In this document: one piece after another, positions 49,673 to 56,510 of the stretch
Position numbering within the stretch: the first letter of the stretch is position 1
Layout: every line of letters begins with the position of its first letter
Assembly (NCBI GenBank): GCA_965655095.1
Contig: OZ296651.1
Span: 10,974,001-11,038,000, forward strand
Reading direction: 5' to 3'
From: Haplodiscus bocki
Lineage: Eukaryota
DNA: 64,000 bases
Made by a program: the position numbers and the translations under genes
Notes under the pieces: generated by a model
Seen by the model: only the letters and a program-made list of their open reading frames with translations
The model's database searches: none
What the model was told of the DNA's origin: nothing

Positions 49673-49890
49673 AGCAGAGACAGAATCCGTGTTCTAGACA
49701 CAGACCCCAGTCAAAGAATTATGGAGAAAAACAAATAACGTTATACTTAAGTTATTTGCTTCTTTTACATTTTCCCAAAAAAACTACCCCATAACAAAAA
49801 ACTAACGTATTTTCCTATATTGATAGCTTTACGTTCACCTACAAAAAATTTACATCCTGTCTAAAAAGCAAAAGCATATGCTTACACGCA
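49673..49890 (+). repeat. Left TIR
   Basis: AGCAGAGACAGAATCCGTGTTCTAGACACAGACCCCAGTCAAA..TTTGCTTCTTTTA..TACATCCTGT matches the reverse complement of the right end. Confidence 0.9.
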
Positions 49891-50009
49891 TAACAATGAA
49901 AAAGAATGTAAGAAATTTCAGGGAATTACAAACATACCATTAAAAATGCTTAATTTTAACAATTATAAAGATTGATAAATTGATAAAGAAATAAAATAGT
50001 CTTTCGTAG

Positions 50010-51097
50010 TGGATATAAAGAATTATGATTTTCTTCATAATAAAATTGAATCTTTCCCAATTACCCCCACTAATAAAAATGAAACACTTATACTAGAGAT
50101 AGTAACATATTGCATAATGTAAAACAAAGCACCCATGCGAAAGCACTGGACACCTTAGAATTCAAAATGACTAAACGAAAACGAAACTTCAATTTTGACC
50201 AACCTTCAAATCGTGAAAAATGGATGATGGGTGTAACGATTTTACAAGTTGATAATACTGTTGACAATACAACAGAAAGAAATAATAAATTTGTGCATTA
50301 TATACTTGGCTATTATGAACAGAAACCTGTTTTTCGAGAATTTCAAAAAACAATTGGATCAAAATACACCAGAACACACGCTACGGACTAAATTAGAATT
50401 AGCCATTAATTATGCAATTGAAAAAAATAAAAGGTGAATATCGAATAATTTAGTTTTTACTTATCAGACCTGGACTATGAATTACCTAGAAAATTCTATA
50501 GAAGACTCAAAGGCAATGAATTACCGAAGGCATAATGATGAAAGTCTTGATGTGCATTACAGAATGCAATTAACTAGTAAAGAAGTTGACTATGTTTTAG
50601 GTTGAAATTATGTTGACGCAAAGACAATAATTTATGAAATACCTCCAGGAATTTTCGAACTGAGCGACATCAACAATGGTTTTCAAGAAAGTCTTCAACG
50701 TAAAGCCGATGAAAAAACAACGAAAACACTTTGAACAACACATCATGAAATAATTTTCAATTCTGAAGTTCTAGGATTTACAAAGAAAAGCTGTCCTGCT
50801 GGAACACAATTAATCGAGATGCCTACGAATAAAAAAATTATCGATAAAGTACATTTAAAGTGCAACTGTGTCGATGGCTAAATCGTAAATGGTAGACGTG
50901 GAAGTATTCTATTTTCATTTAATCTCAGTGCTCCACCAGGCTTCAAAATTCACAACGAGCCTAAATCTGTTTCGTTTAAGAAAGTGAATAAAGAGAAGAT
51001 TGGTGATACAAATTTTCATCTGGAAAGTGATGATGGTAATATACTTGATTTTAATGGTGAAACTCTAACGTTTACAGTGATGTTAATAGAAATGTGA
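50010..51097 (+). pseudogene. Minor capsid (penton)-like gene
   Basis: N-terminus DTLEFKMTK..FNF..KWMMGVTILQVDNTVDNTTERNNKF; C-terminus IDKVHLKCNCVDG*IVNGRRGSILFSFNLSAPPGFKIHNEP..FKKVNKEKI..LESDDGNILDFNGETLTFTVMLI. This matches the Polinton/adintovirus penton pattern. Confidence 0.75.
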
Positions 51098-51127
51098 ATG
51101 TTTTTTATTGATCCTAAATGACAAGTT

Positions 51128-51538
51128 ATGACCGATTCAAAAGTTATTCATTGTGTTTAGGAGGTAGACACTACTCTTCAGCGGTTATTAAACCAACTAT
51201 GTCGTTTAATAAAAAAACTGGAGAAGAGTAATTTAGTCAAGGCCGATTGTACTATATGTAGAAAAAAAACCAAAACTAAAATAGTTTCAGATAATAGAAC
51301 TGAAGCAGAAGGATTAGGAATTTTCTTTGAAAATCTAGGGAAAGGTAGAGCAAAAGCAGCGAAAACCTTAGCTAATAAAGTAGCTAACAATCCAACTGGG
51401 GCTTCAGAACTTGCTGCAGATCTATCAACTCCTGCTGCAACTAGAAATCCTAAAGGAATAGCAGCAACTGCTCCTTCTGTTATAAAATCTGTTCATCAAG
51501 GAAAAGGTTTGTTTTTAGGAAAAATACAACAAATATGA
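51128..51538 (+). pseudogene. Small virion-associated-type protein with CxxC and an amphipathic basic helix
   Basis: Reads DCTICRKKTKTKIVSDNRTEAEGLGIFFENLGKGRAKAAKTLANKVANNP...VHQGKGLFLGKI*; 5' end is frameshifted. Confidence 0.6.
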
Positions 51539-51539
51539 T

Positions 51540-52440
51540 TGATCGTGAAAATTCTTCTTGATAAATGTTTGGAATAAAGCGTCTAGAAGTTTTTGAAAAA
51601 TTTAAACAATTCAAAAGTTTACAGAAAAACTCATCAAAAAGAAATGGAAAGAAAACCTGTGTAAACAAAATTTTTATCATGATATAGGAAAAAGTTTTTC
51701 AGCCATCAGTCGACCAGCAGAAAGAATTAGCTGAAAAAATGATGAAGGCAATCCCAACTGGAAATAAAAATTTAGGCTTTAGTATTCTTGAATGACTAGA
51801 AATTTATGGTGAAATAACTCAAAATAATGAAATTTTAACCGAACTTATCAATTCCATTGTAACAAACACTAGTTTTGTTAAACTTCTTGCTGATCTGATG
51901 AATTCTAAAAATTGAAGTCAATTTAGTTCAACTCATATTGACAAGAAACAGTTTACGATAAATCCACAAACTCATAAAAATGTTATGATAAAAAAATTTT
52001 TTTACCTTTTTTGACAGTGATAGTATGGGAAATAACTGTCATATAATTGATCCAGTTCTCCTTTACTTTTTGTCCAACGCAACGTTCAAAAATGATAACT
52101 TCATTGATAAAGATGTAATGAAAAAAAATTACGAGGTTGTGGATTATAACTCAAATTATGGTATTGAAAAGTCAGATAGATTTTTTATGAATAAATTGTT
52201 CAAAAACAAAAGGATGAGAAAGCGGTTCTTTGATTTATGGCTAAGGACTTGTAATCATGTTTTTTTTCTGATCCTTATGATTTTGTGGATGGATTAGATC
52301 TACTTTATCTAGAAAAAACGCGGAAATGCTTGCAAAATTAAAAATGCTGAAATGACACCAGTAGTTGATAAACCTTTTGAATACGATTGGTTAATAGAAG
52401 ATGATCATGCTCATATACTTTCTTTCGGAAACACTTTTTC
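51540..52440 (+). pseudogene. Conserved Polinton-type hypothetical protein
   Basis: C-terminus SDPYDFVDGLDLLYLEK..(G)N..NAEMTPVVDKPFEY resembles the Polinton motif SDPxELxxRLxLLxxExxAGN..NxEIxxIxDxL. Confidence 0.55.
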
Positions 52441-53989: not shown

Positions 53990-54236
53990 ACAAACTGTTA
54001 ATGCTTCTGTCATATCCTTGTCTTTTAATTGTGCTATCTGAATTTCCCATATGTTTTGCTATTCCTTTTTGGGTTAATTTGGGATCATTAATTTATATTA
54101 CCATTAATTTTAACATTATTTTCTGTTTATATAGACGCAGAATTGAATTTGAGTTCAAGTTTTCTTATTTACCAGCTGAATCTATAGTAAAATTAGAAGC
54201 CGATTTTTATAAATAAGTTTTTATATTTTTTTCCAT
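53990..54236 (-). pseudogene. Helix-turn-helix protein remnant
   Basis: Reads INDPKLTQKGIAKHMGNSDSTIKR with in-frame stops upstream. Confidence 0.6.
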
Positions 54237-54249
54237 TTTTTAAAGAAAG

Positions 54250-54620
54250 ATGACACCGTGTTCAGAAAAACATATACATTGCGGGATAGAAAGAAATTTG
54301 AGCAATAATCAGAATTTTAAAAAAATAAAACCAAAATTGATTGATGTGTTAATGTTAAAATTAGTTTACGAAGAACGTCCTGGAAAAAGTTTTATGAAAA
54401 GTTTCTTTTGTCGTCTTTGTAACCAAATTATACCTGATAAGTCTATGGCCTGTCATGTTTTATTTAAAGATCAATTTGCCAAAGTTATTCAACTCGTGAG
54501 AAAAGCCTTTTGTTTCTGTCTATTTTGTGATATATATATATAACAATGAAAAAATAGAAAAGTTTATGAAAGTACACGAGGTCATTATGAAAGTGGTAAA
54601 ATTTACATACCTTGTTTAAA
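54250..54620 (+). pseudogene. Zinc-finger-like protein remnant
   Basis: FFCRLCNQII..CH and FCLFCDIYI followed by His residues. Confidence 0.4.
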
Positions 54621-54784
54621 CAGACCTTCTGATATTTTTTGCAGAGATTTTCGTAGAATCTTAATTCCTAAAAGAGAAATTGACATACATTTTTTTTGAA
54701 AATAGTACAATAATTCAAAAGTGGGAAAGTGACATGTTCGCCAAGCTAACCGTCGGCTTTGCCGACATTTTGGCTCAATAAACG

Positions 54785-55760
54785 ACAGAGCAATCAAATG
54801 AAAAAATTCCAAAATGCCCCGTTTGTTTGGAAAAATTTCGAACAGAAATGTATTTATGCTCTGATGACTGTTTGTATGATTAAAAATGTTTGAATAAATA
54901 ATTCTTAACGAAAGTCCAATAACAAGACAAAATATAACATATTTTGTTCCAGTAGTATTAAAAAGTGATGTAGTAGTTTATTTTGAAAGAGAAGCAAGAA
55001 AGCAATATTGGAGAAATAATATGCAACCCAGATAATTTTGATCAGGATGGTTTCAACACAAATGGTTTTGATATTCAAGGATTTGATCGAAATGGATGTA
55101 ACATCGATGGCTCTAATAGCAAGAAGGAATTGATGGATAATAAAGAGAAAGTTCAACAAGCAATTAAAAATTTTTGAATAAATCAAATACTAGCGTCAGT
55201 CCAATAACAAGACAAGAAATTAATATAGTTTTCCAGTAGTTATGAAAAATGATATGGTAAATTTTTTTTCCAGAAGAAGCAAATATAACTTTGGAGAATT
55301 ATTATACAACTCAGTTGGTTTTTTGATATTTAAAGATTTTATTGCAATGGATTTTTTAATGGATGGTTTCAATAGCAAGAAGGAATTGACTGATATTAAA
55401 AAAGGTTCAACAGGCAATTAGGAAAAATCCATGGAATATCTATTATGCAAATGAAAAAAAATTCTAATGAAGGAATGTATTGAATTGGAACCTATTACAT
55501 ATCAGTATGCGTCTATAAAATTGAAAACTATTGTTGAGCTGGCTATTCTTTTTAAAACGAGGAGGATCATTTCCTTCAATAGGAAAAGACCTCCGTAATC
55601 AAACGAAAATTGGATTGTTAGCAGTTGAAATGAATCCTGTAAATTTTCAATACCTTAGTATGAATTTGAGAGTTGATGATGATGTTCTTGATTTAGCTGT
55701 TGTCAAAAATGAATAGATGATAAGTTATGCAAGTGAAAGAGTTGGAAAATTATATCTCTA
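54785..55760 (+). pseudogene. RING/U-box + GFD pentapeptide repeats + DUF4116-like repeat protein (decayed, with internal duplication)
   Basis: KCPVCLEKF..YLCSDDCLYD*KCL..SPITRQNI; FDQDGFNTNGFDIQGFDRNGCNIDG; NPWNIYYANEK, IELEPITYQYASIKLK, LLAVEMNPVNFQYLSMNLRVDDDVLDLAVVKNE*MISYASERV. Confidence 0.6.
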
Positions 55761-56204
55761 AATCTAAAACCGAAGTCAACAAATTTCACAAAATAGATTT
55801 CCATTATTCAAGAAAAAGAGTATTTAAATAATGTACCATCAACTTTATTTGTACAGTTTCCTGCTTCACACAAATCTTTATTTAAATGTAGATTTGAGAG
55901 TACGCGGAAAAAGATTACACAAATAAATACAAAATTTTTGATACCTGCCAACTCAGTTTTTCGACCAGGTTACAGGAGGTATAAGCCCATCGGAGTCCGT
56001 TCCACTTATACCTTCACAACAGTGATCGTGATTTTTAAGAACTGTGGTTTTGGTGATATACTCCTATAGCAAGCGCATATGTCAAAGACATTGGGACGTT
56101 GGTTAGAAGTAAACCACGAACAGTTCGACTGCGAGCGGCCTTGACTTTAGTCAATGACATTATCATTAGGCTATAGGAGGCGAAATCAGAACGGATGTCA
56201 ATGT

Positions 56205-56510
56205 ATATATGCTTTTACTCTTCAACAGCATGTAATTTCTTATACAACAAAACTACGCTCAGCAGTAAGCGTGTGTATGCTTTTACTTTTAAACAGGATG
56301 TAATTTTTTTAATGCGCGTCAGTAAGCGTGTATATTCTTCTTGTCCTAAACAGGATGCATATTTTTTGTATGTGAATATACAACTGTCAATATATGAAAA
56401 AAATTGTGGGTAAATATAAAAGAAGCAAAATGCTTATTTAAACGTTTTTTTCTGGCTGCAGAATTTTTTTGACTGGGGTCTGTGTCTGTAACGCGGATTC
56501 TGTCTCTGCT
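56205..56510 (-). repeat. Right TIR with three ~60-bp subterminal repeats
   Basis: Ends GACTGGGGTCTGTGTCTGTAACGCGGATTCTGTCTCTGCT. AACAG(G/C)ATG-core units at ~56224, 56292 and 56349, with CAGTAAGCGTGT at 56263 and 56320. Confidence 0.88.

Follow-up and report, generated by a model that had tools for sequence, protein, structure and literature searches.

Passages of PMC4028283 and PMC6431247 describe Polintons, also known as Mavericks, as elements of 15-20 kb that encode a polymerase B, an rve integrase, an ATPase, and a protease. In vertebrates, 96% of 3,511 Maverick loci are counted as eroded fossils in an excerpt from Barreat and Katzourakis 2021 (PMC8097293), and portions of PMC8502044 and 10.1101/2023.08.22.554363 report two polymerase classes with module exchange between them. 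Polymerase exchange is described for nematode Polintons and adintoviruses. A literature search by phrase for non-autonomous or mini Polintons/Mavericks returned one paper (PMC5499653), and among the papers listed by broader searches no title concerned such a family. Repbase holds non-autonomous Polinton entries. Here we describe a decayed 6.8-kb Polinton/Maverick copy in a stretch of 64,000 nucleotides of Haplodiscus bocki DNA (contig OZ296651.1, positions 10,974,001 to 11,038,000; the whole stretch is referred to as the window).

Like the animal Polintons/Mavericks (adintoviruses) treated in sections of PMC8502044 and PMC4028283, this element has AG...CT terminal inverted repeats (TIRs), a penton gene, and an A32/FtsK-like ATPase gene, and the family of its parent shares with them polymerase B, the rve integrase, a double-jelly-roll capsid, and a protease-like gene. 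It differs from them in measuring 6.8 kb, in having lost integrase, protease, and major capsid genes wholly and polymerase and ATPase genes mostly, and in that its tested genes are broken or truncated. An initial annotation, made from the sequence alone, had called it a mini-Polinton that kept its virion genes, i.e., either a one-off internal deletion or a member of a satellite-like family. In our assessment it is very probably an ordinary old Polinton fossil that was shortened by three private deletions at one locus, not a member of a helper-dependent mini-virus family.

Three junctions and what was lost at them

Comparison of the element with the host genome yielded 70 matches (best 40 of 5025 candidates); the long matches were 64-76% identical, and many of them began or ended at element position ~2935-2945. 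Junctions were placed by split alignment against these relatives, which are collinear with the element on either side of each of three junctions (J1, J2, and J3; Table 1) and carry the missing genes in the extra DNA between. The gap at J1, which the split alignments place at 49857-49868, amounted to 4400-4491 bp in three of six relatives, the other three being low-scoring on one or both sides. J1 lies within an 18-bp look-alike common to a TIR sub-repeat and the polymerase gene (17/18 between a TIR unit of relative L039 and the polymerase of L082), and the window's J1 sequence reads through this word. The look-alike may be the signature of a microhomology-mediated deletion, a mark that host repair and a replication slip would leave alike. 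The gap at J2 was 1496 bp relative to L034 and, by match positions, ~1.46 and ~1.58 kb (L016/L017 and L025/L073); in the relatives it is occupied by the integrase gene and a second gene, which we take to be protease-like from its motifs and which found no match in Pfam, PHROGs, or PDB sequence searches. The break at J3 was identical in all nine relatives, with a gap of 2236-2389 bp in seven and of 2729 and 3247 bp in the other two. The capsid gene within this gap had 182 homologs among 350 candidates, nearly all of the listed ones annotated PF21738.

In total, ~8.2 kb were lost in the three deletions. The parent Polinton would have been about 15 kb long, because this is what the element and the three gaps add up to, in agreement with two longer copies of the same TIR type whose TIR pairs lie 14.9 and 14.2 kb apart. 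These copies are the kind of full-length partner with the same TIR that the initial annotation had suggested searching for, but they are equally decayed (TIRs 84-85% identical). The first of its two alternatives, internal deletion confined to this locus, holds, but there are three junctions, and a single deletion at ~52615 removing both polymerase and integrase was rejected, as both were lost at J1 and J2.

J1 also accounts for the asymmetry of the termini. Counted from its outer end, the right TIR can be aligned with the element ends of relatives up to base 580-676 (L039, L034, L040, L014, L074, L101, and L105), and TIRs span 635-860 bp in the two long sister copies, whereas similarity between the right arm and the element's own left arm is confined to the outer ~190 bp, which indicates that J1 cut into the left TIR. 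The alignment of the two arms over ~190 bp of the left arm comprised 136 matches, 27 mismatches, and 7 gaps (83.4%).

We propose that a Polinton/Maverick of ~15 kb integrated at this locus long ago, probably with a 6-bp duplication, and that its gene order would have been TIR, polymerase B, rve integrase, protease-like gene, penton, two small genes, ATPase, major capsid, accessory genes, TIR. Under neutral decay the TIRs would have drifted to their present identity and the genes would have gained stops and frameshifts, while the three deletions, presumably later than the insertion, took their share; for J1, the likeliest origin is repair or slippage involving the 18-bp TIR sub-repeat and its chance look-alike in the polymerase gene, if the microhomology mechanism applies. 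Today the element would be functionless.

Recurrence of the junctions and other short copies

Recurrence of the junction was the check set beforehand for the satellite-like family, and each junction proved unique to the locus among the scored candidates. No copy spanning J3 was present among 39 other matches (best 40 of 244 candidates) or, in a tighter search, among five other matches (all 6 candidates scored), and none spanning J1 or J2 among 37 (all 38 scored) and three (all 4 scored) other matches. One match that ran 14-16 bases beyond the J3 break, at C5:67060236 (L094), was dismissed, being an ATPase gene in a copy that still holds the capsid gene. The best segment identity among 106 loci was 75-88%, with none above 88% in any segment. 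In none of the scored candidates, then, did J1, J2, or J3 recur.

Contigs from public runs X1 and X2 (48800-50952) and X4 (49511-50386) pass unbroken and without differences from the left host flank through J1 and J2; contigs from X1 and X2 do the same for J3 (51494-52685), and the right end is followed, in one sample, without differences into its flank (54844-56908). X1 and X2 come from a single sample, which may be the one that was assembled, and X4 from a second one, all runs being from one study. As contigs cross the junctions without differences, the junctions are real; the same finding speaks against near-identical sister copies at differently flanked sites. In a genome so rich in related repeats, one might suspect that the assembly had collapsed a longer element, but with J1 and J2 crossed by contigs from three runs and J3 by contigs from two, we regard this as extremely unlikely.

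The satellite-like, non-autonomous family of the initial annotation, keeping virion genes and mobilized in trans by a full-length endogenous virus, would accord with the retention of TIRs and several virion-module genes and with the many related Polintons in the genome, including younger ones with open capsid frames. Against it, no junction is shared, and no other copy exceeds the identity ceiling given above. The virion genes were not kept as a set, the major capsid gene having been deleted and the ATPase reduced to a stub, so that no virion module is conserved; the retained genes are broken and no better conserved than the stubs; the left TIR is cut asymmetrically; and the window TIRs match none of the younger elements sampled. 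We therefore consider such a family very unlikely.

Those younger Polintons, with open frames, reside in the same 1.5-Gb host genome (capsid matches examined as the best 101 of 22,736 candidates, most without stops) and look like a recent large expansion. Among these capsid matches, the major-capsid frames are mostly open at 415-417 aa across large contigs, and one younger element of ~17.6 kb has 1.15-kb TIRs that are 99.7% identical. Fourteen stretches taken from younger elements, two with the ends included, showed no similarity to the window TIRs; judged by sequence, the sampled elements do not appear to be obvious helpers, the ends of two having been compared. Scans of viral contigs with the capsid found no relative. 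The host genome, where younger Polintons abound and one virion module is combined with two types of polymerase, is a richer object than the element itself.

Other short copies bear on a further explanation. Three of the five inverted-repeat pairs compared are short (6.95, ~7.2, and ~8.7 kb), and their gene sets are all different. The shortest, L034 (G000:C2:141026175-141033130), keeps polymerase, integrase, and protease, has lost its virion genes, and so forms a near-complement of the window's element; it is flanked by a perfect 6-bp duplication, CACAGC, and its junction was spanned by no other match (best 40 of 159 candidates). L033 retains the polymerase and a few right-hand genes, and L035 part of the polymerase, the capsid, and the ATPase; the ends called for these two were rejected as not true ends, and no target-site duplication (TSD) is claimed for them. 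The flanks of the sister copies agree at 4/6 (L036/L037) and 2/6 (L038/L039) positions. We also considered a family of ~9-kb elements in which the replication module alone was missing, and rejected it, as left flanks showed integrase and polymerase.

Such copies could be defective-interfering-type genomes. For the window's element, this would mean that one or more deletions occurred during replication of the parent with the ends left intact, and that the polymerase and integrase of a full-length relative then copied the product and inserted it a single time, after which it decayed. The element does keep its two termini with the outer ~190 bp of TIR, the position of J1 in a TIR sub-repeat look-alike would suit a template switch in strand-displacement replication, and short copies bounded by inverted repeats recur (7-8.7 kb), one of them with a perfect duplication. 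The same signature, however, is left by host repair, and the relatives are full of private deletions and insertions of their own; three separate deletions with an asymmetric TIR are more simply explained by slow loss after insertion; a perfect TSD cannot date an internal deletion; and no junction is shared by any copy. On balance we judge this origin unlikely for the element. It is likewise improbable that the short copies in general represent defective-interfering-type genomes from an old Polinton radiation, formed by template switches at TIR sub-repeats and inserted singly by full-length relatives. Were it so, the window copy, with mostly virion-side genes, and L034, which retains polymerase, integrase, and protease, would together preserve, in fossil form, the in-trans complementation of an animal Polinton.

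Several points weigh against an ordinary fossil shortened after insertion, the reading that we prefer. The two 6-bp flanks, TTCTTG and GTCGTG, agree at 4/6 positions, as already stated in the initial annotation; agreement at four or more positions has a chance probability of 0.045 and is only weakly informative, and a TSD decayed like the TIRs would give exactly 4/6 with a probability of 0.18-0.25, so that a decayed TSD may be favored about five-fold over chance but is unproven. Neither an undeleted nor an empty allele of the locus was seen, and the order of insertion and deletion was therefore not directly observed. The left flank occurs once in the genome, and the 15 of 197 joints listed for the public-run contigs included none at the ends of the element. 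A very diverged sister copy may have escaped notice, with the best 40 of 5025 and the best 40 of 244 candidates scored. At J2, a clean two-sided split was obtained in only one of four relatives, and J3 shows microhomology of at most 1-2 bases. Finally, none of the three deletions removed a terminus, and a trans-mobilized element would need both.

Some features of the relatives stand apart from these questions. Two polymerases that can barely be aligned, one PF03175-positive and the other PF03175-negative, accompany the same old arrangement of virion genes, in tandem with or divergent to the integrase (L013/L014, L027/L074, L096, L097, L007/L101, and L105 versus L016/L017, L019/L070, L023/L072, L025/L073, L029/L075, L083, and L034). 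Copies that agree in TIR type and in their right-hand accessory region show two gene orders, with either the capsid or protease and penton adjoining the integrase (L036/L037, L038/L039, L040, L051, L079, and L094 versus the window's arrangement). Pieces of Polintons have been amplified in tandem, as in L084 with many repeats of the 287-aa gene, and capsid-integrase or polymerase-integrase blocks are repeated in L085/L049, L071, L073, and L108.

Retained genes and termini

Gene labels were derived from natural open reading frames (ORFs) of younger Polintons in the same genome, which match DNA_pol_B_2, rve, DJR-like_dom, and Pox_A32 above cut-off and were compared with the element by tblastn. 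The TIRs, a penton homolog resembling the mavirus penton, and an ATPase stub with a Pox_A32-positive homolog bear out the Polinton call of the initial annotation. Its list of genes held up for the penton-like gene, the small 'amphipathic-helix' gene, the helix-turn-helix gene, and the ATPase tail, which runs from 52439-52442 to the break at J3; it was also right that integrase, major capsid, and protease are absent, none having matched in the element (no integrase match; major capsid protein and protease at best E 0.24 or worse). It had reported no protein-primed polymerase B, missing the stub listed in Table 1, and did not list the 287-aa gene homolog. Its long TIRs with AG...CT ends are present at 49673 and 56510, but the left arm is not long.

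Relatives carry long polymerase remnants at the position of the stub. In L034, the counterpart of the polymerase stub corresponds to residues 1130-1177 of a 1226-aa polymerase, a protein type with polymerase B motifs and an atlas score of 0.97 to DNA-polymerase clusters that misses Pfam PF03175. The direct protein match of the stub alone was not significant (E 0.46-0.98), a protein search of the fragment against longer proteins gave no match, and one against representative proteins gave unnamed, mostly short matches. A further stretch resembling the polymerase, at 49982-50077 (E 0.049 when 600 bp were searched), was discarded as a second stub, as it aligns to the spacer preceding the penton gene in the six relatives tested.

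The penton gene matched an intact 356-aa homolog with tblastn E values of 7e-34 and 8e-11. The structure of this homolog could not be predicted from the single sequence (predicted local distance difference test [pLDDT] of 35), and the model used was obtained from 67 aligned natural sequences (pLDDT of 67). In Foldseek, it retrieved the mavirus penton (E 3.3e-8), followed by the Sputnik and adenovirus pentons, with low TM-scores of ~0.3. The small gene that follows aligns in two frames to an intact 137-aa homolog (E 1e-26) and matched no Pfam or PHROG family. The homolog of the 287-aa gene gave weak tblastn matches at both ends (E 0.001-0.008) and a median DNA identity of 73% to 20 loci. For the ATPase stub, the homolog matches Pox_A32 at 5e-8.

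The helix-turn-helix gene itself reaches HTH_24 with an E value of 0.033 when stops are read as X. The zinc-finger ORF of the initial annotation, at 54244-54543, is Cys/His-rich, but it found no Pfam match, also with stops read as X. The presumed E3-like gene shows a zf-RING_2 match at E 0.019, below cut-off, and the stronger match in the region is to DUF4116 (E 7.7e-9; 35.4 bits against a cut-off of 24.9, stops read as X); the copies of its internal duplication are 69% identical. Both 'E3-like' and 'zinc finger' are therefore reasonable labels that still want proof. When 44 natural fragments were scanned directly against Pfam, the useful match was a single DUF4116 hit below cut-off.

The longest stop-free frame of the element has 125 aa, compared with a 95th percentile of 118 and a maximum of 140 in shuffled sequences. 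No RNA data set was listed as holding the element, which bears in neither direction on its expression. Median identities to relatives are 73-77% for whole genes and 79-80% for gene stubs; the stubs being no more diverged than the whole genes, nothing suggests selection after the deletions.

The element forms an AT-rich insert (28-32% GC, compared with 34-45% elsewhere in the window) that starts with AGCAGAGA and ends with TCTCTGCT, giving inverted ends AGCAG...CTGCT. An end of the AGCAGAGA type was present in 9 of 11 single ends of relatives, and the remaining two differ by 1-2 letters. The right TIR contains three ~60-bp sub-repeats. Its inner part (Table 1) shows very high summed contig depth in public runs and was found at 77-87% identity in 10 other loci (2 overlapping); close relatives exist beyond the loci compared. 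A GC-richer 38-nt motif, possibly regulatory, occurs three times within the element at a spacing of ~800 bp.

Elsewhere in the window are host genes and probable mobile-element remnants. Two of the latter, without Pfam match, we take to be an integrase-like ORF (28538-29356) and a Cys/His ORF (39227-39667); a third has a repeat-protein match to an ORF beside a younger Polinton.

Table 1. Coordinates of the element, its parts, and neighboring features (window positions)
Feature	Position	Strand	Remarks
Decayed Polinton/Maverick copy	49673-56510		TIRs at both ends and decayed genes
Left 6-bp flank	49667-49672		TTCTTG; candidate decayed TSD
Left TIR	49673-49863	+	Outer ~190 bp of an arm once 600-670 bp; 83.4% to right arm
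J1	49857-49879	+	~4.4-4.5 kb lost: inner left TIR, nearly all of polymerase
Polymerase B (protein-primed) stub, near C terminus	49864-49974	+	110 bp; median 79% DNA identity to 8 loci
J2	49965-49990	+	~1.5 kb lost: polymerase end, rve integrase, protease-like gene
Decayed penton (minor capsid) gene	50048-51097	+	Frameshifted; 3 stops in C-terminal aligned block
Small conserved Polinton gene	51121-51538	+	Cys-rich N-part, basic helical C-part; frameshifted
Decayed homolog of conserved 287-aa Polinton gene	51640-52450	+	Function unassigned; same position in relatives
A32-type packaging ATPase, C-terminal stub	52439-52613	-	E 3.5e-11 to homolog
J3	52606-52618		~2.3 kb lost: N-terminal two thirds of ATPase, whole double-jelly-roll major capsid gene, most of 177-aa gene
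N-terminal stub of 177-aa gene	52614-52790	-	Position within gene in L019; median 80% DNA identity, 19 loci
38-nt motif	53143-53180, 53947-53984, 54734-54771
Decayed helix-turn-helix gene	53990-54190	-	E 8e-8 to intact homolog with HTH_24 above cut-off
Cys/His-rich decayed ORF, possible zinc finger	54244-54700	+	Translation; conserved in 13 loci at 74%
Decayed accessory gene	54790-55760	+	RING-like start, internal ~285-bp duplication, DUF4116 repeat
Right TIR	55835-56510	-	Near ancestral length (~600-670 bp), from relatives' element ends
Inner right TIR	55936-56057
Sub-repeats of right TIR	56195-56367
Right 6-bp flank	56511-56516		GTCGTG
Host tubulin exon	16341-17441	+
Probable mobile-element remnant	28538-29356	+	No Pfam match
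Probable mobile-element remnant	31658-32240	-	Repeat-protein match
Probable mobile-element remnant	39227-39667	-	No Pfam match
Host cyclophilin exon	57280-57735	+	~770 bp right of element
Host DUF4796 gene	62286-62885	+

Comparison with described systems

As a fossil the element matters little, internally deleted and eroded Polintons being their common state, whereas a true trans-mobilized family would have mattered, given the sparse literature. Its value is that of a worked negative control for 'mini-Polinton' calls: without a recurring junction, TIRs and part of the gene set are not enough to call a satellite.

The inferred parent length falls within the 12.7-24.6 kb that a part of PMC8097293 gives for intact vertebrate Mavericks. 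The polymerase stub is of the PF03175-negative type and, as far as its sequence goes, fits the 'Beta' class outlined in section 3.1 of PMC8502044. MITE-like (miniature inverted-repeat transposable element-like) non-autonomous TIR derivatives share with the element the retention of both termini around an internally deleted core; such families, however, comprise several insertions sharing one junction, whereas the element is a single copy with 83% TIR identity and asymmetric arms. The degraded Maverick fossils covered in excerpts of PMC8097293 resemble it in their stops, frameshifts, and eroded TIRs and TSD, with no difference in kind; what sets the element apart from them is that both of its ends happen to have stayed recognizable.

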